Counted from the first letter of the stretch, positions 4,284 to 41,561 are shown. The stretch: DNA of 64,000 bases from Candidatus Terraquivivens yellowstonensis (GCA_023539445.1 JAKCEW010000003.1:2250-66249), one strand, 5' to 3'. Notes: a model not told the origin generated them from the sequence alone. A program made the numbers and translations.

Positions 4284-5513
4284 CATATCGCTAAACGCTC
4301 TTCCAAGTCTAGATATACCTTCAACCAAATTCTCTATAGAGTTAGCGAAGCTAATCCTGATGAAGCCCTCACCGTATGCACCCATGGACGAACCATGAAG
4401 AACGGCTACACCATAGTTCTCGATTAGTCTAGTGACCAGCTGTTCAGAATTCATACCAATACGTGATAAAATCTTTTGGACGTTAACGAATGCATAGAAT
4501 GCTCCCTGTGGTCTCAAGTATGTAATGCCCTCTACCTCTTTGAGTTTTTCCATCACCACATCCCTTCGTTCCTCGTATGCTTTCACCATCTTCTTCACAG
4601 AATCTTGCGGTCCCCTAAGTGCCTCTATGCCGGCATACTGGACAAACTGGTTTGGACACGACGTCATGTTATTCAACAGCTTGGTCATAGGTTCGACAAG
4701 GTCCGGGGGGACAACTGCATACCCAAGTCTCCAACCAGTCATAGCATACCTCTTTGAAAAACCATCCACCAATATCACGTTGTCCTTTTTTGTAAACGAT
4801 AGCGGCGAGTAGTGCTTCAGTCCGTCAAACAATATAGGATAGTATATTTCGTCAGATATCACGAATGCGTTTCTATCTTCCGCGATCTCCACTATACCCT
4901 TTACATCCTCCTTTCTCAAGACGGAGCCGCATGGGTTATGGGGTGAATTAATGATTATTGCCTTCGTTCTGCTGGTAGTTAGTTCGTTAACTTCTTCAGG
5001 CGTCATTCTAAAACCGTTATTCTCACTCAACCTTAACGGCACAGGCTTTCCGCCCACATACGCTGTGATGGATTCGTATGCAGGATATCCTGGGTTTGGA
5101 TATATCACTTCATCACCATCATCCACGATGGATGCAATAGACGCAAATATTGCTTCTTTGCATCCAAGCGTCACAAGTACATTCTTCCAATCAACGCTAA
5201 CACCTAATTCAGCGGAGACCTTCTCTGCGATGGCCTTTCTGAGTTCCGGTATTCCAGGTGTCGGCGTGTAGTGCGTTGCACCCCTCGCCAAGGCCTCTAT
5301 CGCCGCCCTCTTTATGTTTTCTGGCGTATCAAAATCTGGCTCACCAATCTCCATATGTATCACGTTCTTTCCCTTTGCTTCAACTTCTCTTGCCTTAGAA
5401 AGAACTGCAAAGGCACCCTCTTGGGTTATCTTATGAACCTTGCTAGACGTTCTCTTCATATACGTTTCAGAAATTTCTGATGTTTTGTTCTTATAAAAAC
5501 TTTTGGAATGCAT
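4275..5513 (-). CDS. PLP-dependent aminotransferase class I/II (aspartate aminotransferase-like)
   Basis: 412 aa. The fold-type I layout shows a lysine-containing segment SKRYAMTGWRLGY and NPxNPxG-like IINSPHNPCG. Confidence 0.8.
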   Translation of the reverse strand: MHSKSFYKNKTSEISETYMKRTSSKVHKITQEGAFAVLSKAREVEAKGKNVIHMEIGEPDFDTPENIKRAAIEALARGATHYTPTPGIPELRKAIAEKVSAELGVSVDWKNVLVTLGCKEAIFASIASIVDDGDEVIYPNPGYPAYESITAYVGGKPVPLRLSENNGFRMTPEEVNELTTSRTKAIIINSPHNPCGSVLRKEDVKGIVEIAEDRNAFVISDEIYYPILFDGLKHYSPLSFTKKDNVILVDGFSKRYAMTGWRLGYAVVPPDLVEPMTKLLNNMTSCPNQFVQYAGIEALRGPQDSVKKMVKAYEERRDVVMEKLKEVEGITYLRPQGAFYAFVNVQKILSRIGMNSEQLVTRLIENYGVAVLHGSSMGAYGEGFIRISFANSIENLVEGISRLGRAFSDMLR

Positions 5514-6896
5514 AAGTTAATAAAAATGTCGTGTAAACAAAAGCGTGAGTTGGACAAAATGGACATGCTGGAGTTGCAAGGATACTCAGGCAGGGTTAGG
5601 GAGCTTCTAGAACGGGAAAACATAAACATTGGAGATGAGATCGAGATAATCTCAAACGGTAGGAGATATAGGGGCATCCTGATGGCTAGATACGAGCTTG
5701 CAGACCCGAACTATATCACACTAAAACTGCCTAACGGTTACAACATAGGCATAAGGGTGACGGAGAATACAACTGTATCTAAAATCTCCGTTGGAGTGAG
5801 GCCGACGTTCGTGCGACCTCCCAAACCCCAAACCCTCAGCGATCTCCCAAATGTTGTCATAATCAGTACAGGAGGGACAATAGCTAGCAGAGTAGAGTAT
5901 AGGACTGGAGCGGTTAGGCCTGCTTTAGATGCAGAAGACCTTTTGGCAATAGTTCCCGAACTTGCAGAGATCGCAAAGATAGACACTGAGGTATTATACA
6001 ACGTGTGGAGCGAGAATATCCAAGTTCAACATTGGATAGGAATGGCTGAGGCTATAGACAGGTCTATTCGTAAAGGCGTGGATGGCGTGGTTTTAACTCA
6101 CGGCACAGACACTATGGGATATACGGCCGCAGCACTCAGCTTCGCTCTTCAGAAACCGCCAATTCCGATAGTTCTAGTTGGCGCACAAAGATCTTCAGAT
6201 AGACCTTCAAGCGATGCCACAACTAACCTAATTGCCGCCGTCGCAACCGCCGCTAAAGCGCCTTTCGGCGAAGTTGTCGTCGCCATGCATAAATGGCATT
6301 CCGATGATGTCATAGCTCTGCATAAGGGAACTAGGGTTGTCAAGTTGCATACAAGCAGCAGAGATGCATTTCGCTCAGTGAATTCAAGACCAATCGCTTA
6401 CTATCAGCATGGCGAGCTCAAGGTGGTGGTAAATAATTTGAACCCAAGAGGTTCTAACGAATACGTTTTTAAACCAAAGTTTGATACAAGAGCATTTCTC
6501 ATAAAGTTCTTCCCATCCATGAAGCCAGATATACTGAACATTCTAGCCGATGCCGGCATAAAGGGTTTCATAATAGAAGGGACGGGGCTAGGGCATGTTT
6601 CCTCAGATTGGGTGCCAGTTATAAGGGGATTAACAAAAAGGGGCATATTCGTTGGTATGACGTCCCAGTGTAAGTTCGGAAAAGTTAACATGAATGTTTA
6701 CGATAGCGGCAGGGATTTACTAAAGGCAGGAGTCATTCCACTAGATGACATGCTCTCTGAGGTCGCACTCGTTAAGCTTATGTGGACTTTAGGCAACCTT
6801 GGCGAGGGGGCCGAGCTGGAAGAGATTAAAAACCTTATGCTAAAGAATATTGCTGGGGAGATTTACTCAAGAAGTTTGCCTAACGTGGGCTTGTGA
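5508..6896 (+). CDS. gatD: Glutamyl-tRNA(Gln) amidotransferase subunit D (asparaginase-like domain). The true start may be an internal Met near nt 5562.
   Basis: N-terminal GatD-specific domain followed by an L-asparaginase-type domain (VVIISTGGTIAS..., HGTDTMGYTAAALS). It is followed directly by gatE with a 4-nt overlap. Confidence 0.85.
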   Translation: MHKLIKMSCKQKRELDKMDMLELQGYSGRVRELLERENINIGDEIEIISNGRRYRGILMARYELADPNYITLKLPNGYNIGIRVTENTTVSKISVGVRPTFVRPPKPQTLSDLPNVVIISTGGTIASRVEYRTGAVRPALDAEDLLAIVPELAEIAKIDTEVLYNVWSENIQVQHWIGMAEAIDRSIRKGVDGVVLTHGTDTMGYTAAALSFALQKPPIPIVLVGAQRSSDRPSSDATTNLIAAVATAAKAPFGEVVVAMHKWHSDDVIALHKGTRVVKLHTSSRDAFRSVNSRPIAYYQHGELKVVVNNLNPRGSNEYVFKPKFDTRAFLIKFFPSMKPDILNILADAGIKGFIIEGTGLGHVSSDWVPVIRGLTKRGIFVGMTSQCKFGKVNMNVYDSGRDLLKAGVIPLDDMLSEVALVKLMWTLGNLGEGAELEEIKNLMLKNIAGEIYSRSLPNVGL

Positions 6897-8809
6897 TAGT
6901 TATGGAGGATTATTCCAACATAAAATTGAAAGTCGGTCTGGAGATACATAGGCAACTGGACACAAAGAGGAAATTGTTCTGTGATTGTCCGACGGAAGAG
7001 GCCGAAGATGGTGAAACCATAACTTTTGTCAGAAAATTAAGAGAAGTTCAGAGTGAGCTTGGTACAGTAGACGCGGCGGCAATGTTCGAATCAAAAAAGC
7101 GAAAAACGATAGTCTACCATGCAAACCTCAAGAATGTTTGCCTAGTCGAGATGGATGAGGAGCCTCCGCATAACTTGAATCCTGAGGCTCTTGAAATCGC
7201 TCTTACTGTTGCTCTTTTACTCGACTCCAAACCAGTTGATGAAGTTCACGTAATGCGCAAGATAGTCATAGACGGTTCTAACACGACAGGATTCCAGCGC
7301 ACGTGTATAATCGGGATAGGAGGGCAAATAAAGATAAAGAATAAAACCATACCCATACAGACGATAACCCTCGAGGAAGATGCTGCTAGGATAATAGAGG
7401 TTGGAAAAGACGAGGTTCATTACGACCTATCAAGGCTTGGCATACCATTAATAGAAATTTCGACGGAACCAGTCATCGAATCGCCTGAAGAAGCAATGGA
7501 AGTAGCTTACGCCATAGGAAGAATATTAAGGGCAACGGGCAAGGTTAAGCGGGGCATAGGGACTATCAGACAAGACTTGAATATATCAATTAAGGATGGA
7601 GCACCTGTCGAGATAAAAGGTGTCCAAGAGCTCGAGCTTATCCAAAAGGTTGTGGAAAACGAGGTTAAGCGGCAACTGCATCTTTTGTGGATAAAAGAGG
7701 AATTGCTAAAACGCGGTGTTAGGAAGGAAGATATTTGGAACGCAAAACCCGTTGATGTTACCCACATATTCTCCAAAACTTCCAGCAAGATAATCAGAAG
7801 ACAGCTTGAAGCGGGCGGGGTCGTGTACGCAATAACATTGAAGGGATTTGCCGGATTGCTGAGTCTACAACCATCGCCCGGCATAAGGCTTGGTGCAGAG
7901 ATTGCAGGAAGGGTAAGGGCATGGAGCGACGTGGAAGGAATATTCCATACGGATGAGCTCCCCAATTACGGAATAACGATTGAAGAGGTTAAAGCTCTGA
8001 AAGATGCAATGGGTGCTGGAGAATACGACGCCGTGGTCATTGTGGCAGCGGAAAGGGACAAGGCATTGGATGCGATAGAGGTTATTAAGGAAAGAGCGGC
8101 GGAGGCCTTAGATGGGGTACCCGAAGAAACTAGAGCGGCAAGGCCTGACGGAACAACCGTCTACATGAGACCGAGACCGGGCTCGGCAAGGATGTATCCA
8201 GAGACGGACATCCCACCAATCATAATTTTACAAGAATATATTGAATACCTGAGAGCGAGGCTTCCAAAGACTTTGGACGTTGTGAGTCAACAACTTGTTG
8301 AGAAGTATGGACTCAGCAAGCAACTTGCAAATGATCTTATAGACAGTGAGGTGGTTGAAGATTTTGAAGAGATTGTTTCGAAAACTGGAGTATCTCCTAC
8401 CGTCGTAGCATCCACGTTGACGGAAGTTCTCAGAAGTTTAAGGAGGGAGGGGGCTAACGTTGAAAAGATAACCAAAGCGCACATAATGAGGTTCTTTGAA
8501 CTCGTGTCATGCAACAAGGTGGCGAAGGAGGCCGTTAGGGATGTCTTAGCGGCCGTAGCACAGAAAGGACGGAGCGTAGATCAAGTCATAGACGAACTTG
8601 GTCTTTGGTCTCCTCCAGCTTCAGAGGTGGAGGGCAGAATTAAGGCGCTTGTTGAAGAGCACAAGCAAGAGATCTTTGCTGATGAAAGGAAAGCCGTAGC
8701 TAAGTTGATGGGTGAGCTAATGAAATATTACAGGGGCAGGGTTGATGGGGCGCTCATAAACAGCATGCTAATAAAGGCGATTCGAACGCTCAAATCTGGG
8801 GAGCAATAA
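6893..8809 (+). CDS. gatE: Glutamyl-tRNA(Gln) amidotransferase subunit E
   Basis: 638 aa with a GatB/GatE catalytic domain and a GatE-specific insertion. It forms an operon with gatD. Confidence 0.85.
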   Translation: MIVMEDYSNIKLKVGLEIHRQLDTKRKLFCDCPTEEAEDGETITFVRKLREVQSELGTVDAAAMFESKKRKTIVYHANLKNVCLVEMDEEPPHNLNPEALEIALTVALLLDSKPVDEVHVMRKIVIDGSNTTGFQRTCIIGIGGQIKIKNKTIPIQTITLEEDAARIIEVGKDEVHYDLSRLGIPLIEISTEPVIESPEEAMEVAYAIGRILRATGKVKRGIGTIRQDLNISIKDGAPVEIKGVQELELIQKVVENEVKRQLHLLWIKEELLKRGVRKEDIWNAKPVDVTHIFSKTSSKIIRRQLEAGGVVYAITLKGFAGLLSLQPSPGIRLGAEIAGRVRAWSDVEGIFHTDELPNYGITIEEVKALKDAMGAGEYDAVVIVAAERDKALDAIEVIKERAAEALDGVPEETRAARPDGTTVYMRPRPGSARMYPETDIPPIIILQEYIEYLRARLPKTLDVVSQQLVEKYGLSKQLANDLIDSEVVEDFEEIVSKTGVSPTVVASTLTEVLRSLRREGANVEKITKAHIMRFFELVSCNKVAKEAVRDVLAAVAQKGRSVDQVIDELGLWSPPASEVEGRIKALVEEHKQEIFADERKAVAKLMGELMKYYRGRVDGALINSMLIKAIRTLKSGEQ

Positions 8810-8880
8810 GAGTCCTAATGGAAGACGTGGCGATAAATTTTAATGTATGCAATTCTTGACATTTATGTTGGTTAAAGACT

Positions 8881-9351
8881 TTGCAAGATGTGAAGAGTCT
8901 TAAGATAAGGATACAGCATGACGACGTCTCCGTCGAGTTTGATGGAAATTATGAAGAGGTATGGATGAGCGTTAACAAATACCTTTCGGAGCTTTACCCA
9001 TCTCTCTCAATAGTAAAGAAGTTTCTTGGCGCTGTCGATGTCTCTCACATTATGTCCCTACTCTCGGGAAAAGCCCAGATAGTAAACGGCAGGATAATTG
9101 TTTCAGCTCAGGTGGATGCTAAGAAAAAGATAATCATATGCCTCGCGGCTGCATACGTGGGTAAGGTACTTGGGCTTTTGGAGAATGATGCGCTCTCTCC
9201 CAAAGAGGTTTCGTTAATCACAGGTTTAGAAGAAAGCGTTACCAGAGCTAGGCTAAGCGAGATGAGAAAGGCGGGTCTCGTCATAAAGGTTGACGGCGGA
9301 AGGTATGTTTTTAATACATCTGCCATCAACGTGCTGGCAGAGGAGGTCTGA
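8881..9351 (+). CDS. Uncharacterised small protein, paralog A: N-terminal beta-rich domain plus C-terminal winged-helix
   Basis: 156 aa. The C-terminal ARLSEMRKAGLVIKVDGGRYVFN is a typical wHTH wing. It is homologous along its whole length to the next ORF. Confidence 0.5.
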   Translation: MQDVKSLKIRIQHDDVSVEFDGNYEEVWMSVNKYLSELYPSLSIVKKFLGAVDVSHIMSLLSGKAQIVNGRIIVSAQVDAKKKIIICLAAAYVGKVLGLLENDALSPKEVSLITGLEESVTRARLSEMRKAGLVIKVDGGRYVFNTSAINVLAEEV

Positions 9352-9353
9352 TT

Positions 9354-9845
9354 ATGGGCGAGGAGATTATGAAAGTTTCAATACAGTATAAAGATGTCCG
9401 GGCAGATTTTGAAGGTAGGCCTGATGACGTTTACAGAAGTATCGTATCATTTATGGAGAAAGTGATACCTTCGTACTCACTTGCGAGCAAGATAAGCTAT
9501 TCTGTGGACCTTCAAAGCTTGATTGAAAAATTGAGGGATTACCTAGCATATAACCAAGCTGAGGGGGTCTTTTTGCTTAAACCTCTAAATGCGCTATCAG
9601 TTTCCGAGGCAATAATGCTTTTGTGTATAAAGAGGTACCTTGAGCATGGATTGGGTCTAGCAGAGTCCCCCTCCATAAATGCTTCGGAACTCGCGAAAAA
9701 CATAGCCAAGTCCGAGAAGACAATATCGGGAAAACTAAGCCTGCTTTTGCGGAAGGGCTATATAAGACGTCTGGATAGGGGAGATTACGTTATAACGATG
9801 TTAGGCATTAAAGAATTTGTGGAAGGCAAGGTCGAGAAAAAATAG
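9354..9845 (+). CDS. Uncharacterised small protein, paralog B (same architecture as 8881-9351)
   Basis: The N-terminus MKVSIQYKDVRADFEGRPDDVY aligns with LKIRIQHDDVSVEFDGNYEEVW of paralog A. The C-terminal wHTH reads LSLLLRKGYIRRLDRGDYVIT. Confidence 0.5.
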   Translation: MGEEIMKVSIQYKDVRADFEGRPDDVYRSIVSFMEKVIPSYSLASKISYSVDLQSLIEKLRDYLAYNQAEGVFLLKPLNALSVSEAIMLLCIKRYLEHGLGLAESPSINASELAKNIAKSEKTISGKLSLLLRKGYIRRLDRGDYVITMLGIKEFVEGKVEKK

Positions 9846-10301
9846 CTACTCGTTATTGGATTCGCTCTCTTCGGTTTCCACTTTCGCCGTTGATGCAGGT
9901 TGTGCTGAGTACAAGTATCTTCTGGGTCGGCCTATCCTAACTAAGACACCCTCTCTTACCATATCCAGTAAAACGTGGGCCACGGCGGTCGGATCATAAT
10001 GATGACCCCTTCTGGCCAATTCTGCCACAACTTCAGACAATGGCCTTGGTGTGGAAAACCACCCTTCCTTAAGCATGTTCTCCACCAAACCCCTACACGT
10101 AGACGTCTCAGCGGACCTCGTACGTTTTTGGGGTTCTGATTCGGGTTCTAATGTCTCTGAAACGCCGAGCGCTGCCATAACGTCCTTTATAGACTTCTCT
10201 AGCAGATCAGGAGGTGCCTCTATCTCCACGTTCGCCTTTCCTACCGTTATCTTGACCCTTATTCTTTCTTGAGACATGAGCAAATTACCCAAATTGCGCA
10301 A
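9846..10301 (-). CDS. Uncharacterised small protein, paralog C (third member, convergent orientation)
   Basis: N-terminal IRVKITVGKANVEIEAPPDLLEKSIKDV and C-terminal wHTH LARRGHHYDPTAVAHVLLDMVREGVLVRIGRPRRYLYS, ending in an acidic tail. Its stop codon abuts the stop of paralog B. Confidence 0.45.
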   Translation of the reverse strand: MRNLGNLLMSQERIRVKITVGKANVEIEAPPDLLEKSIKDVMAALGVSETLEPESEPQKRTRSAETSTCRGLVENMLKEGWFSTPRPLSEVVAELARRGHHYDPTAVAHVLLDMVREGVLVRIGRPRRYLYSAQPASTAKVETEESESNNE

Positions 10302-10316
10302 TATTTATAAGCACAT

Positions 10317-11387
10317 GTGTCCCTAAAGTTATTAGTGATGAAGCGGATGGGCGCACTCATAAGCACCGAGACCCCTTTTATTGAGAACTTCTTAGGGGTA
10401 TTTAAAGCATTTTCTAAGATGGGGCTGGGCTCGATGGAAAACCTAAGGAAAGCCTTGCCCGTCGTCAGTATTAATGGACTTGGACATCATATTGGCCATG
10501 ATGTTATGCTGGAGTTGGACAAGATGACCTCCGTCAGAGCCTACAAATTGAGGCCTTCAGGCAAGGCGTGCGATGTGATTGCATGCGATACCTCAGTCAT
10601 AAAGCTGGCTGAGGGACCTTTTGGCTACCTCGCCGCTCTGAGGGGGTCTGTGGTAAGGAGAAAAAAGTCTGGCGGTATCGAATCATGGATAATTGGCCCT
10701 CTCATCTTTTTCGTATCTTTCGACGATAACCTACCTTTACTCTCCTTTATGTCTGAGCTCGTGGATGGTCAGCCGCTTAGCGAAGACTTTGAGACGATAC
10801 ATAGAAGCATCAGCAGCTTACTCGAAAAATGGCTTCAACGTTCGTTAGCATCAACTTTTTCTGACTCGATACTACTGTTCGATGGTTCACTGACGGCAGG
10901 GCCAGCGGACAATTCCTTACAGCTGATTCGTGAGACGCTCAATGAGGCTGAACGAAACGGCAACGTTGTGCTTGCCTTTTCGAAATCAACACACTTATCC
11001 TATCTTGGAACTAGGATAACATCATTGGTACCAGACATGGACCCCCCGTGCGTAATTGATGTGAGCGATGCTGTATGCTCGTCCCCTAAAATCCACAAGC
11101 TCGGCAGGATACTCGTATCTCATCTATCCAGAACTTTCTTTCCATACAGGCTTGATGTGAGCGGGAAGGAAATAGGAGACGTCTTGCAAATAATTGGTAA
11201 CCTCTTAAGCAGCGATGCCTTGATATACGGCTACCCAGAAACCCTGCTATTAGCCCACAATTATTGCACCTTCAACAAGTTAGACGTGTTGGCGTTGCAG
11301 AAGTTGCTGAAGCAAGAATTTAACATAGATGCTTTCAACATAGGAGATGTGAGGAGTAGCCTTTTCAATCCTTTGGATGGTCATTAG
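10317..11387 (+). CDS. nurA: NurA-like 5'-3' nuclease
   Basis: 356 aa with D-x-S motifs (ACDTS, LLFDGSL) characteristic of the NurA RNase H-like fold. It lies immediately upstream of herA with a 2-nt gap. Confidence 0.55.
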   Translation: MSLKLLVMKRMGALISTETPFIENFLGVFKAFSKMGLGSMENLRKALPVVSINGLGHHIGHDVMLELDKMTSVRAYKLRPSGKACDVIACDTSVIKLAEGPFGYLAALRGSVVRRKKSGGIESWIIGPLIFFVSFDDNLPLLSFMSELVDGQPLSEDFETIHRSISSLLEKWLQRSLASTFSDSILLFDGSLTAGPADNSLQLIRETLNEAERNGNVVLAFSKSTHLSYLGTRITSLVPDMDPPCVIDVSDAVCSSPKIHKLGRILVSHLSRTFFPYRLDVSGKEIGDVLQIIGNLLSSDALIYGYPETLLLAHNYCTFNKLDVLALQKLLKQEFNIDAFNIGDVRSSLFNPLDGH

Positions 11388-11389
11388 AC

Positions 11390-12877
11390 ATGAAGATCTT
11401 TTCTAAGCAAAAGGATACGCTGGATATATTGGCATTTCCCTCAGAGATTGTGGTCGAGAAAGGGCAATATCTCGTGGTAAGTGAGGGGGACAAGTTCATG
11501 CTTGCTCAGGTGGTAGACGTAAGCTATGCTGACATTCCCGGTATACTAGAAGACATGTTACGAGAAGTTTCGTTAGAAATCGTGAATCATGAAAACATCT
11601 TCGACCCATTTGATATGGGATCACTAACCGTGATGATAAAGGAGGCAAGAATTGTAAGATGTAAGATAAGGTGTATCGTGGAAGGGGATAGAATTGTGCA
11701 TAATAGCTCATGGCTTCCTTCGAGGTTTAGGTCAAACATATCCGCTGCGGGAGCGGACTTGTTGAGGAGCGTGATGAAGCTAGCAGGTAAGCGAAAAATA
11801 CACATCGGAACAGTAGGAGGAGAAGATTTCTGGGTTGATGCAGAATCTTTCGATGGCAGACTGACTATAATAACTGGGAAGAAAGAGACTGGAAAGTCTC
11901 ACATAATGAAGTTGATATCGACCGCGTTGGTTGAGTATGGAGCCTTGGTTATAGTGTTTGACATTAATGGAGAATATGTAAACCTAAATAGAAGAGTTGA
12001 CGGAGGCCAGAGCAGCATAGCACTTCGGCACGAAGTACTTGAGCCTGGTAAGAACTTTAAAGTTAGAACAGAAGACGTCGGTCTCAGAACTTTTATGGAT
12101 ATATTGATACATGTTTACGACACGCCGTCAAGCAGTAGCCGAGAATTTTTTAGAATATGGAATGCTGTAAAGAGGAATAGAGGCAAAGTTACCCTCAAGG
12201 ATTTGATAGAGATTATTCAAAAGACGCAGTTACACGAGTCCGTTAAGGAAGCGTTAATGAGTAGGCTTATGGCAATAGAAGCTACTGGCATAATTACAGA
12301 TGATGAATGCGTAACATCCTTCGAGGACGTTGTCAAATGTATTGGTGGTAAAATGCTCGTAATCAACCTTAGAGATCTGTTGCCCTCTACAAGGAGGATG
12401 GTTGTCGAATATTTGCTCAGCAAACTCACCGAGTTACTGCAAGCAAGGAGGTTACCACCGATATTCCTCGTGGCTGAGGAGGCACACCTCTACCTAAGGG
12501 ATACCTATTGGGATGATATTGTGACAAGAATGAGACACTTAGGCTTATCGCCAATCTTCGTGACGAACCAACCCGATTCCATACCCGAGACGATATACAG
12601 ACAGGCAGACAACGTAATTCTTTTTAACTTCACCAACGAAGCTGATTTGGAGGCAATAGCAAAAACTTCGCGCATAGATTCTGAAAGCGTGAAGACCATA
12701 GCGGCTTCTTTACCCCCGCGTTATTGCCTACTCATAGGCTACTTGGTCAAGGACATACCCGTCGTGGTCAAAGTTAGAGAGATCGATGTGGAGACTATGG
12801 GAAAAACTAGGTTATTTTTTGAACTTTCCGATAGGCAACTACATATACCGAAAGTGGTGAGAGAACAAGTAGCATGA
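11390..12877 (+). CDS. herA: HerA-type FtsK/HerA-superfamily DNA helicase/translocase
   Basis: N-terminal HAS-barrel-like segment. Walker A TGKKETGKSH and Walker B FLVAEEAH. Its ~495 aa length is typical of archaeal HerA. Confidence 0.75.
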   Translation: MKIFSKQKDTLDILAFPSEIVVEKGQYLVVSEGDKFMLAQVVDVSYADIPGILEDMLREVSLEIVNHENIFDPFDMGSLTVMIKEARIVRCKIRCIVEGDRIVHNSSWLPSRFRSNISAAGADLLRSVMKLAGKRKIHIGTVGGEDFWVDAESFDGRLTIITGKKETGKSHIMKLISTALVEYGALVIVFDINGEYVNLNRRVDGGQSSIALRHEVLEPGKNFKVRTEDVGLRTFMDILIHVYDTPSSSSREFFRIWNAVKRNRGKVTLKDLIEIIQKTQLHESVKEALMSRLMAIEATGIITDDECVTSFEDVVKCIGGKMLVINLRDLLPSTRRMVVEYLLSKLTELLQARRLPPIFLVAEEAHLYLRDTYWDDIVTRMRHLGLSPIFVTNQPDSIPETIYRQADNVILFNFTNEADLEAIAKTSRIDSESVKTIAASLPPRYCLLIGYLVKDIPVVVKVREIDVETMGKTRLFFELSDRQLHIPKVVREQVA

Positions 12878-13497
12878 ATGATACCGTCAGCAAGTATCTG
12901 AAGATTTACGAAGAGAGACGCGAAGAGATAGAAGCTAGGCTTAGGGAATTTAAGGAAGTCCTACGAAAAAGCGATGAGGAGGTATTCGCGGAGCTTTGCT
13001 TTTGCATATGCACTCCTCAAACTAGAGCAAGGGCTGCGGACGCGGCAATATCGATTATGAAGGAAGAATCAACGTTACTCAACGGTGACGAGAAGTATAT
13101 AGCAGATATTTTAAGGAAAAACGGCGTTCGCTTCCCCGAGTCAAAGGCTAGATACATAGTCGCTGCGAGGGCGTATTTGAGGGCGTTAAAGAGCTTACCG
13201 TCGGATGCTTACAGGGCAAGAGAATGGCTTGTTAAAAACATAAAGGGCCTAGGTTACAAAGAGGCAAGCCATTTTCTGAGAAACATCGGTTATGAAGGGT
13301 TAGCGATTTTGGACAGGCATATACTGAGGGGTATGAAGGAGGTTGGGGTTATAAAAGAGGTGCCAAAAAATTTAACAAAAAGAACGTACCTAGAACTTGA
13401 AAAGAAGTTTATACAACTTGCTAATGATTTAGGTATGAGACCTGAAGCCCTTGACCTCGTCATGTGGGCTGATAAAACGGGGGAAGTGTTCAAGTAG
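12874..13497 (+). CDS. ogg: N-glycosylase/DNA lyase, Ogg2 family (8-oxoguanine DNA glycosylase)
   Basis: 207 aa. Contains ELCFCICTPQTRA (Ogg2 signature region), the HhH-GPD lysine in IKGLGYKEASHFLRNIG and the catalytic Asp in AILDRHI. It overlaps the herA stop codon by 4 nt. Confidence 0.65.
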   Translation: MNDTVSKYLKIYEERREEIEARLREFKEVLRKSDEEVFAELCFCICTPQTRARAADAAISIMKEESTLLNGDEKYIADILRKNGVRFPESKARYIVAARAYLRALKSLPSDAYRAREWLVKNIKGLGYKEASHFLRNIGYEGLAILDRHILRGMKEVGVIKEVPKNLTKRTYLELEKKFIQLANDLGMRPEALDLVMWADKTGEVFK

Positions 13498-13517
13498 GCT
13501 TAAGAGTCAGGTGATGA

Positions 13518-14465
13518 ATGTTGAACAGCATTAAGATGAGTGAGGACCTCAAAAATCTTCTGTATAGCATACCAGAAATTGACGTTGAAAGTTTGCTAGG
13601 AAGCTATCAAAAACCTATGCGAGAATCCATCAGAATCAACACCCTAAAGGCTCGAGAAGAGGATGTATTATACATGTTAAAGGAGAAGGGTGTAGAACTT
13701 GAGAAGATACCTTGGGCGAGGTACGGTTATTGGGTCTTGAACGATGTCAATATCTCAAATACAATCGAACACATGCTCGGCCTTGTATACATTCAGGGTG
13801 CAGTCTCTATGGCACCAGTTGAAGTGTTATCACCTAAACCTGGCGAGCTCGTTCTGGACCTTTGTGCCGCTCCAGGTAGTAAAACTACACAAATAGCACA
13901 ATTTATGCAAGGAGAAGGTGTAATAGTCGCCAACGACGTGAATCTCAAAAGGATAAGGGCTCTCTCTTCTAATGTTCAGAGGTGCGGTATTATAAACTGC
14001 ATTATCACGCAGGCCGATGGGAGGAGGTTCCCATTGTGGGCTAAGGGATTTTTTGACAAAGTTCTCGTAGACGCACCATGCACATCGCTCGGCATAGTAA
14101 GTAAAGATTGGGGTGCTGCGAAAAAATGGAGCTTTCGGGCTTCCGAGCGGTTATCTAAGCTTCAGCTCAGCCTAGCCATATCCGGCTTCGAATGTCTGAA
14201 GGTTGGCGGCACGATGGTCTATGCCACATGCACACTCAGTCCACAAGAAAACGAATGGGTCATAGACCGCCTCATTGCAAGCAAACCAAACGCACGTCTG
14301 GAGAGCATAAATTTGGAGGGGTTAAAGATGAAAAAGGGACTTCTGGAATGGCAGCATGAGAAGTTTAATCCTGAGATTGAACGGTGCGTGAGAGTTTATC
14401 CGTATGAACATGAGGCTGAAGGATTCTTTATGGCGAAGATAGTGAAGGAAAGTGATGGCCCGTGA
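13518..14465 (+). CDS. NOL1/NOP2/Sun family RNA cytosine-C5 methyltransferase
   Basis: Motifs LDLCAAPGSKT, DAPCTSLG (PC motif IV) and TC motif YATCTLSPQENE. Confidence 0.75.
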   Translation: MLNSIKMSEDLKNLLYSIPEIDVESLLGSYQKPMRESIRINTLKAREEDVLYMLKEKGVELEKIPWARYGYWVLNDVNISNTIEHMLGLVYIQGAVSMAPVEVLSPKPGELVLDLCAAPGSKTTQIAQFMQGEGVIVANDVNLKRIRALSSNVQRCGIINCIITQADGRRFPLWAKGFFDKVLVDAPCTSLGIVSKDWGAAKKWSFRASERLSKLQLSLAISGFECLKVGGTMVYATCTLSPQENEWVIDRLIASKPNARLESINLEGLKMKKGLLEWQHEKFNPEIERCVRVYPYEHEAEGFFMAKIVKESDGP

Positions 14466-14920
14466 AAAAAATAGTTTTGTTAAATTCCTCAAAAAAGTCA
14501 GCGTTCCAGACGCTACTTGAGAGACAGTATGGTGCTGAAGATTTTTCCGATAAAGTTTTGATACAGGCTGGTGAAGGTAAAATTAGACTGACTACAAGCG
14601 ATACAATAAAGGTTGCAGAAAAAATGCGAGGTGTACAATCTTTGGGCTTATACATAGCAAAGATTGAAGGGCAGGAGGTTGTACTTTCTATCGAAGGGTC
14701 TCAAATCCTCTGTAACAGAATTACGAGAAACCGTATAGAATTAACCGAAGAACAGGCTAAGCTCTGGATGGAAGGGGCACCAATACAACTTGATAAGTTT
14801 ACTGCAGTAAAGTATGTCGTTGCATTCTATAAACACCTATGCCTAGGATGTGGACGGGTTTCAGCAGACGGAAAAGTCTACCCCCAAGTGCCTAAATGGA
14901 GGCGGTTACAACAAGAGTAA
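14462..14920 (+). CDS. Small RNA-binding-like protein (possible PUA/Nip7-like partner of the upstream methyltransferase)
   Basis: 152 aa, translationally coupled to the Sun methyltransferase by a 4-nt overlap. The domain assignment is tentative. Confidence 0.3.
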   Translation: MKKIVLLNSSKKSAFQTLLERQYGAEDFSDKVLIQAGEGKIRLTTSDTIKVAEKMRGVQSLGLYIAKIEGQEVVLSIEGSQILCNRITRNRIELTEEQAKLWMEGAPIQLDKFTAVKYVVAFYKHLCLGCGRVSADGKVYPQVPKWRRLQQE

Positions 14921-40928: not shown

Positions 40929-41561
40929 GTGCGGCAGGGCTTCCTTGAAAAACTTATACATCCATATATCATCCAAAAACAGTTGGTGGACGGGTTGGCG
41001 TATGTATTGAAATATGAAGGTCAAGAATACTATGAACTGGAGATAAAAGGTTTCAAGAGAAAACTGCCTCTCATTCAAGTATCTCCAGACACTTGGATTG
41101 CATACTTTGACAGCTTAGGCGATAGGGAATTCATAAGCCATTGCGCAAAAGAGCTCTACAAGCATTTACTTACATGCGATGTTCTCATGACGGCCGAGAG
41201 CAAAGGCATACCGCTCGTTCATGAGCTTGCGAGCATGCTAAATCATAGATATTACGTAGTATGTAGGAAAGAAATTAAACCGTTCATGCGCGATCCGATA
41301 TGCGCGTTCTACAAGCCTATAACCTCCAACAAGGAGCTAACGCTTTGTATAGACGGAAGGTATAAGGAGAAGATCGCCGGGAAGAGGGTAGGGATAATAG
41401 ACGACATAGTTAGCACTGGTGAGACTTTAAACGCCATGGAGGAAATCGTCACAAAGGCCGGCGGAATAGTCGAAAAGAAGATAGCGATACTCTTGGAAGG
41501 TAATAAGCGGGACGATGTCATTTACCTGGGCATATTGCCGATATTCAAGAAGGCGGTTTAG
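40929..41561 (+). CDS. Type I phosphoribosyltransferase (purine/pyrimidine PRTase family)
   Basis: PRPP-binding motif RVGIIDDIVSTGETL and PRT fold segment DVLMTAESKGIPLV. Confidence 0.6.
   Translation: MRQGFLEKLIHPYIIQKQLVDGLAYVLKYEGQEYYELEIKGFKRKLPLIQVSPDTWIAYFDSLGDREFISHCAKELYKHLLTCDVLMTAESKGIPLVHELASMLNHRYYVVCRKEIKPFMRDPICAFYKPITSNKELTLCIDGRYKEKIAGKRVGIIDDIVSTGETLNAMEEIVTKAGGIVEKKIAILLEGNKRDDVIYLGILPIFKKAV

Follow-up and report, generated by a model that had tools for sequence, protein, structure and literature searches.

Predicted winged-helix proteins encoded beside nurA-herA in Candidatus Terraquivivens yellowstonensis form an archaeal family linked to a conserved palindrome at a predicted promoter

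Results

Gene organization of the A, B and C locus

HerA-NurA is the DNA-end-resection motor of archaea. To our knowledge, little is understood of its regulation and targeting, particularly in Bathyarchaeia, Caldarchaeales and the ammonia-oxidising Nitrososphaeria, lineages that are abundant and barely tractable. We analyzed a 64,000-nucleotide stretch of DNA from Candidatus Terraquivivens yellowstonensis (GCA_023539445.1, JAKCEW010000003.1:2250-66249; the whole stretch is called the window), in which three genes for small proteins, designated A, B and C, lie beside nurA-like and herA-like genes. A sequence-only reading of the window had called open reading frames (ORFs) of 156, 163 and 151 amino acids (aa) here, with A and B in tandem across a 2-nt gap and with abutting stop codons of B and C; all of these were found exactly as called.

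Protein A (8881–9351, plus strand; 156 aa) begins at a TTG codon that matches the annotated start position in its homologues. The gene for protein B (9354–9845, plus strand; 163 aa) starts 2 nt past the end of A, and a Shine-Dalgarno-like run, GAGGAGGT (9339–9346), lies within the end of A just ahead of the B ATG. The gene for protein C is on the minus strand (9846–10277), convergent with B and divergent from nurA. The TAG of B (9843–9845) immediately adjoins the reverse-strand stop of C (9846–9848), and the 3' ends of B and C overlap by 30–70 nt in relatives (L001, 8418–8489; L007, 8384–8414). Such overlaps leave no space for terminators, and overlapping antisense 3' ends would result. The ORF of C reaches a TTG at 10301, which gives the 151 aa of the sequence-only reading; because the C homologues are 137–143 aa long and begin at MSQERIR, C most likely starts at the ATG at 10277 and has 143 aa.

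The nurA-like nuclease gene (10347–11387, plus strand) scored 30.4 bits against the Pfam NurA model (cut-off 21), and its product had no match among PDB sequences. Its ORF opens at a GTG (10317); as judged from aligned intergenic regions, the ATG at 10347 (MGALIS...) is the start kept among Terraquivivens relatives. This nurA is 100% identical to that of a 558-kb JGI contig. The herA-like gene (11390–12877, plus strand) encodes a 495-aa ATPase of the FtsK/HerA superfamily with a Pfam DUF87/HerA central domain (E 2.7e-15). The closest solved structure by sequence was Sulfolobus HerA (4D2I, E 2.5e-11), and the HerA_Thermprot model gave 46 bits against a cut-off of 800.

Relationship and predicted folds of A, B and C

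BLASTP aligned A with B at 24% identity (E 2e-12), and the alignment of the two family profiles with hhalign covered the full length (probability 99.5, E 3e-22); on these alignments A and B are unambiguous full-length paralogs. C had no BLASTP similarity to A or B. Narrow family profiles aligned C in register with the N-termini of A and B over about 35 residues (E 7e-5 and 1e-3). With wider profiles built from 24 diverse C or C-like sequences and 44 diverse A/B-type N-terminal domains, the N-terminal modules matched with a probability of 93.9 (E 1.5e-7), and the full-length comparison extended over 120 columns including the winged helix (probability 84.7, E 6.7e-6). At the level of profiles, and of profiles only, C is a distant paralog that has evidently lost the middle helix-hairpin. 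The similarity among the three proteins is well beyond chance, and their arrangement is kept in dozens of species. The sequence-only reading had described a triplet of paralogs with a common two-domain architecture. All three are indeed related, but C is much more distant than the word triplet implies; it shares the N-terminal hairpin-helix and the winged helix and lacks the middle part. Likewise, the proposed ...[FI][DE]G signature is present in A and B, but C has VEIEAP at this place.

The AlphaFold2 model of A (predicted local distance difference test score [pLDDT] 84) consisted of a hairpin (residues 7–22) and a helix (24–38), a disordered loop, a second helix (54–61) and hairpin (65–74), and a winged helix (80–145). 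The hairpin-helix (about aa 7–38) is encoded at 8899–8994, the middle helix plus hairpin spans aa 54–74, and the winged helix is encoded at 9118–9315. In B, the winged helix lies at about aa 84–150. In the C model (pLDDT 76), a hairpin (6–21) and helix (26–36) were followed by a disordered linker (40–57), a winged helix (61–125) and a disordered acidic tail; the hairpin-helix (aa 6–36) and winged helix of C are encoded at 10262–10170 and 10097–9903, respectively. Thus the N-terminal domain, which had been taken as plainly beta-rich, is predicted to contain hairpins plus helices. The wing peptides that had been singled out fall on predicted wing hairpins in A and C, and in B their placement comes from alignment with A.

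The winged segments belong to the winged helix-turn-helix (HTH) fold at the superfamily level: their AlphaFold2 segments had a pLDDT of at least 90, and Foldseek gave probabilities of 0.99–1.0 to the winged helices of MarR, FNR, IclR, BlaI and Fur. The Foldseek search against PDB returned winged-helix regulators alone, with a whole-model template-modelling (TM) score of about 0.35. For A, the matches were FNR/CRP, MarR, IclR and Csa3 (2wte), and for C they were the Hop2 winged helix (TM 0.82 over the domain), BlaI/MecI, Fur and PadR. At the sequence level, the A/B profile matched the HTH regions of CooA, Lrp and ArsR/HlyU among PDB sequences, and the C profile found nothing significant there. 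The profile of the N-terminal module alone had no credible match in PDB sequences or Pfam.

All Pfam and NCBIfam scores of the winged helices, to MarR, HTH_24, TrmB, ArsR, AbiEi_4, Penicillinase_R and Csa3, were under the family thresholds. At the Pfam gathering threshold, none of the three proteins belonged to MarR, HTH_24, TrmB or ArsR (PF01047, PF13412, PF01978, PF01022): A scored 17.9 against 21.9 for HTH_24 and 16.3 against 25.6 for TrmB, B scored 18.3 against 24.6 for MarR, and none of the four was among the Pfam matches listed for C. PADLOC and PHROGs gave weak winged-helix matches alone, those in PADLOC being to Csa3/CARF and AbiEi models. The sequence-only reading could not recognise the family as any characterised regulator, and the profile searches agree, since they place the C-terminal winged helix alone and only with sub-threshold scores.

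Close homologues of A, B and C were confined to metagenome-assembled genomes (MAGs) of Caldarchaeales (Aigarchaeota). The 31 homologues of A all came from Caldarchaeales or 'Nitrososphaerota' MAGs, and C was about 92% identical in Candidatus Terraquivivens tengchongensis. The combined A+B profile reached further, to 585 cluster representatives at E <1e-3 and 137 at E <1e-10, mostly full-length proteins of 155–185 aa; source names among these matches include Wolframiiraptor, 'Thermoproteota archaeon' and Nitrososphaeraceae. The proteins combine an N-terminal h-x-h-x-h...G...h-E-h-E-[GAC] hairpin plus helix with a C-terminal winged helix, and their genes have nurA-herA within a few kb. By these predicted features, A, B and C represent an undescribed archaeal family with a novel N-terminal beta-hairpin-helix and a C-terminal winged HTH. 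Fusions are also present in the family. In P0087 (535 aa, 3 members), the C-terminal half of an A/B-type protein is joined with a Ser/Thr protein kinase domain; in P0191, whose contig is short, an A/B-type protein is joined with DUF488; and P0120 and P0142 (about 370 aa each) carry an N-terminal extension of unknown kind.

Linkage of the family to nurA-herA

Linkage was examined by two scans, one centred on C (one genome per species; query, an alignment of C) and one centred on NurA (metagenome contigs; query, an alignment of six NurA sequences). The first yielded 61 loci from Caldarchaeales and Bathyarchaeia. nurA was divergent from C and followed by herA in every species locus with enough flanking sequence (55/55), and on the side of C away from nurA, 39 of 59 loci had at least one A/B-type gene within 7 kb, with two such genes in 34. 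The second scan yielded 80 metagenome loci, and a family member was directly upstream of nurA in all 65 that had at least 600 nt of upstream sequence; it was a divergent C in 60 and a co-directional A/B-type gene in 5. At least three family members were present in 26 of the 34 metagenome loci with at least 4 kb upstream. When A/B-type relatives were found by sequence alone, nurA-herA lay within 2 kb in seven of eight independent contexts. The sole unlinked context was in 'Thaumarchaeota archaeon LZ172' (L004/L005, 7525–8462), where gatDE is followed by a 159-aa gene with weak similarity to C and by an A-like one, and no nurA-herA was found within 8 kb.

A layout like that of the window was seen on contig L074, which carries a protein of a cluster labelled Nitrososphaeraceae. 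In Bathyarchaeia, the usual order was gatE, C', two A/B-type genes, a gap of 1–3 kb, and then C divergent from nurA-herA, where C' has a C-like architecture; a further short A/B variant was also found. Each locus carried a set of two to four distinct paralogs. The family is therefore a companion of nurA-herA across Caldarchaeales, Bathyarchaeia, the Nitrososphaeraceae-labelled contig and other Thermoproteota. Whether these proteins always accompany herA and nurA across archaea had been posed as a check by the sequence-only reading; the linkage in 55/55, 65/65 and 7/8 contexts bears this out and supports its suggestion that they serve nurA-herA as dedicated regulators or as DNA-binding accessory factors.

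A conserved palindrome at the predicted C/nurA promoter

The 69-bp intergenic region between the ATG of C (10277) and the ATG of nurA (10347), positions 10278–10346, contains a single TATA-like element, the AT-rich AATATTTATAAG (10300–10311), which is separated from the ATG codons of C and nurA by about 30 and about 40 nt, respectively. On the basis of its sequence and of its kept position in the intergenic alignment, this element is probably a shared or bidirectional promoter core. Its place in the middle of the region suggests a near-leaderless or leaderless C transcript and a short, Shine-Dalgarno-bearing leader for nurA. Directly abutting the TATA box and 16 nt from the C start codon lies a perfect, operator-like palindrome, TTGCGCAA (10294–10301).

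In an intergenic alignment of all loci, the block TGCGCAA(C/T)-ATTTATA changed hardly at all between Caldarchaeales, Bathyarchaeia and Nitrososphaeraceae. The palindrome was lengthened in Bathyarchaeia to the 14-bp TTGCGCATGCGCAA or to a 26-bp form, TTGCGCATCTTG-NN-CAAGATGCGCAA, and these extended palindromes were preceded by further TTGnnCA-like units. Counted as TG[CA][GA]CAA plus TATA, the operator was present in 56 of 57 species loci and 64 of 66 metagenome loci, and in none of the nine loci that lack C proper and form a co-directional operon. TTGCGCAA occurred about once per 14-kb locus, precisely at the C/nurA region. The conserved palindrome at this promoter thus co-occurs with C proper. 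We rejected the idea that TGCGCAA is a general transcription factor B recognition element (BRE), since its other matches in the window were at chance level. A second copy of TTGCGCAA at 41141 was also set aside; it lies within an ORF, has no TATA box and is likewise at chance level. Homologues of C show almost no variation in the predicted recognition helix, DxTAVAHVLLDLVR, which matches the invariance of the operator.

The resemblance of the winged helices to DNA-binding regulators, the linkage to nurA-herA, the operator and the N-terminal module common to all three proteins lead us to a reading to which we give about an even chance, namely that C would be an operator-binding autoregulator of nurA-herA and that A and B would be its heteromeric partners. 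C would bind TTGCGCAA, probably as a dimer. Relative to nurA, this site falls at the BRE position; relative to C, it separates the shared TATA box from the beginning of the gene. Binding would control transcription of C and of nurA-herA(-ogg), most likely by repression. The translationally coupled paralogs A and B probably form a heteromer, which would join C through the common N-terminal module and tune this control; it could act on TTGnnCA-like half-sites nearby or directly on HerA and NurA. We infer DNA binding, the identity of the operator-binding protein, the direction of regulation and hetero-oligomerisation from sequence.

Co-directional operons and the accessory-subunit alternative

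The small genes and nurA-herA formed one co-directional operon in L075 (7035–11070), L076 (7535–11365) and L077 (6058–10742), with overlapping or almost abutting genes in the first two. The co-directional order of winged-helix genes, nurA and herA was also found among L112, L115, L125, L134, L141 and L155. Loci of this type have neither a divergent C proper nor the TGCGCAA operator. In L078 (11057–14342), mre11 (Metallophos) and rad50 (SMC_N plus a zinc hook) lie just downstream of herA with a NUDIX gene between, which ties the divergent HerA-NurA pair to double-strand-break repair.

These loci bear on a second explanation, the main rival, in which the HerA-NurA machine would have the small proteins as stoichiometric accessory subunits and any transcriptional effect would be secondary. 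The N-terminal hairpin-helix modules would join the proteins into a DNA-binding hetero-oligomer for recruiting, loading or gating the helicase-nuclease; this oligomer might also form a bridge to Mre11-Rad50. The obligate co-occurrence with nurA-herA over class-level distances, the overlapping and translationally coupled operons of three winged-helix genes followed by nurA and herA (L075, L076, L077, L112, L125 and L141), the fixed sets of distinct paralogs, the conserved disordered acidic tail of C and the adjoining mre11-rad50 of L078 are all in accord with it. It accounts less well for a deeply conserved promoter palindrome that points to sequence-specific operator binding, for winged helices that are like those of classical regulators, and for the lineage in which an A-like gene lies away from nurA-herA. 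We consider this explanation possible but rather doubtful.

Several observations weigh against control of nurA-herA by C with the help of A and B. Two to four paralogous regulators are unusual for a two-gene operon, A, B and C have no recognisable ligand- or signal-sensing domain, and another factor could in principle bind the palindrome. The operator motif was not found upstream of the A-B operon, for which reason one simple operator common to both transcription units was dropped. The operator-less, overlapping co-directional operons, finally, fit stoichiometric partners better than classical regulators. The regulator and cofactor models are not mutually exclusive. A tentative and on balance unlikely combination of the two is that A, B, C and C' would assemble by way of the common N-terminal hairpin-helix into a hetero-oligomeric, DNA-binding complex. 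In Nitrososphaeria and Bathyarchaeia this complex would be a physical part of the end-resection machine formed by HerA and NurA, and it would also feed back on its own promoter; such a complex would be a previously unknown loader, gatekeeper, or sensor of DNA ends or damage.

Flanking genes of the module

The sequence-only reading had defined the module as nurA-herA-ogg. The nurA-herA core stands, but ogg and rsmB follow herA in Caldarchaeales only, so that ogg is a lineage-specific addition outside the conserved core. In the window, ogg (8-oxoguanine glycosylase/lyase; 12874–13497, plus strand) and herA share 4 nt at the herA stop. An rsmB-like methyltransferase gene begins 20 nt past ogg, and the next ORF, of 152 aa, shares 4 nt with the end of rsmB (12874–14920 for the three genes). 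The order nurA-herA-ogg-rsmB-p152 is kept across Caldarchaeales and is followed by a convergent gene for a PIG-U-like membrane protein.

A T-C-[RK] motif that opens the winged helix of C was invariant in 27 homologues (Cys61, 10095–10097), and the C proteins of Bathyarchaeia and Nitrososphaeraceae have a second conserved cysteine in the hairpin (EIEC or EITC). Because ogg sits in the operon, Cys61 could be a redox-sensing site, and as a redox switch it could link oxidative damage to the induction of resection.

On the other side of the module, gatD-gatE (5508–8809, plus strand) lies directly upstream of A and is co-directional with it. In Caldarchaeales and Bathyarchaeia, gatD-gatE were directly upstream of and co-directional with A/B-type or C'-AB-AB genes, often with gaps of less than 100 nt. 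The neighbourhood seen in the window (5508–8880) recurred in L011, L032, L056, L057, L066, L067, L072, L073 and L078, and also in L084–L090, L098, L110, L120 and L143. It is a second deeply conserved neighbourhood of the family with no obvious functional rationale, and the genes may be co-transcribed.

The conservation of gatDE, functionally unrelated on its face, indicates that synteny alone can persist in these lineages, and one A-like gene occurs away from nurA-herA. Both points would suit a view in which the small proteins act on their own, as ordinary transcription factors, chromatin proteins or partition proteins, and adjoin nurA-herA through inherited gene order with no functional tie. 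Such a view is hard to reconcile with linkage in 55/55 and 65/65 loci that survives changed flanks and a switch from divergent to co-directional genes that overlap, or with an operator at the shared promoter. No ParA gene, as would accompany a ParB/AspA-type partition protein, adjoins the family, and the adjoining ATPase is HerA/DUF87. We regard inherited order as very improbable.

The weak AbiEi_4 and AbiEi matches to the winged helices of B and C, together with matches of HerA to defence-associated HerA models and mad8 in PADLOC, raise a further alternative, an antitoxin-like safety module in which the winged-helix proteins would repress and directly inhibit a potentially dangerous nuclease-helicase pair as AbiEi-type antitoxins do, possibly in defence. 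The AbiEi matches were all sub-threshold and spanned the generic winged helix alone (AbiEi_4, 18.6 for C and 16.3 for B against a cut-off of 25), which does not place B or C in the AbiEi family of type IV toxin-antitoxin systems. No AbiEii-type nucleotidyltransferase toxin gene was found among the Pfam-annotated neighbours, and the adjoining genes are gatE and nurA. In every lineage the locus is single and syntenic amid housekeeping genes (gatDE, ogg, rsmB, mre11-rad50), and searches of plasmid and phage collections with B and C gave no match. For these last two reasons we rejected an origin in mobile elements or defence, and a role as antitoxins seems highly unlikely. The partition, toxin-antitoxin or chromatin-like role that had been offered as a second possibility on the sequence alone thus finds no toxin gene, no ParA-type partner and no plasmid or phage match in its favour.

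No non-coding RNA in the region came near the gathering score of any family. Matches resembling C/D-box sRNAs in the 3' end of gatE (8651–8722) were far sub-threshold (sR2, 19.7 bits against 42; sR4, 18.1 against 50) and are probably due to chance. No repeat arrays, such as the centromere repeats of ParB/AspA-type systems, were present within 8780–10420 apart from the short palindrome.

Discussion

The small proteins described here are probably dedicated regulators or partners of the NurA-HerA repair machine. In other (hyper)thermophilic archaea HerA-NurA is reportedly essential, and it was simply listed among homologous-recombination genes in the genome paper concerned (PMC5797428). In the literature searched, we did not find the association of nurA-herA with a winged-helix family. 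What is new is a conserved module in which nurA and herA are joined by two to four genes for small winged-helix proteins, a protein domain (the N-terminal hairpin-helix), and a precisely placed, operator-like palindrome that is conserved across classes. The module can also serve as an annotation marker for the corresponding 'hypothetical proteins' in many MAGs.

Among known systems, A and B resemble MarR, ArsR/SmtB, TrmB and Lrs14 regulators, and C resembles BlaI/MecI and PadR, in small size and in a three-helix winged HTH with the motif L..L...G.V.R...G.Y. As is common for small winged-helix regulators, the genes lie beside or divergent from their likely target operon, and as with many archaeal repressors, a palindromic operator overlaps the BRE/TATA region. 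A, B and C differ from these regulators in their sub-threshold scores, in an N-terminal hairpin-helix that matches neither Pfam nor PDB sequences, and in occurring as sets of two to four distinct paralogs, whose genes are in many cases coupled in translation with one another and with nurA. In the case of BlaI/MecI, C scored 16.1 against 22.6 for Penicillinase_R (PF03965) and so does not belong to that family; the region past its wing is disordered and acidic, and no BlaR-like gene lies nearby. Csa3, a CRISPR-associated regulator, joins a CARF domain to a winged HTH; Csa3/CARF3 models weakly matched A and B over their C-terminal winged HTH, and Foldseek matched A to 2wte. These proteins are nevertheless not Csa3/CARF members, as TIGR01884 scored 17.6 against 60.2 over the winged HTH alone; unlike Csa3, A and B have no CARF domain and no CRISPR-cas context, and their N-terminal part of about 75 residues is predicted to be hairpin-helix-helix-hairpin.

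The canonical herA-mre11-rad50-nurA operon of Sulfolobus and Pyrococcus contains the same helicase-nuclease pair, and one related genome has mre11-rad50 downstream of the module. It differs in that the constant neighbours of nurA-herA here are winged-helix proteins and not mre11-rad50, and in that the HerA and NurA encoded here have diverged strongly from their characterised counterparts. The kite proteins ScpB and MukE and the gamma domain of FtsK, as winged-helix accessory parts of DNA-translocating ATPases, offer a further comparison. No sequence or whole-fold similarity to them was detected, and HerA is not an SMC protein. The likeness is one of analogy only: several small winged-helix proteins share an operon with a DNA motor and a nuclease and might direct the motor on DNA.

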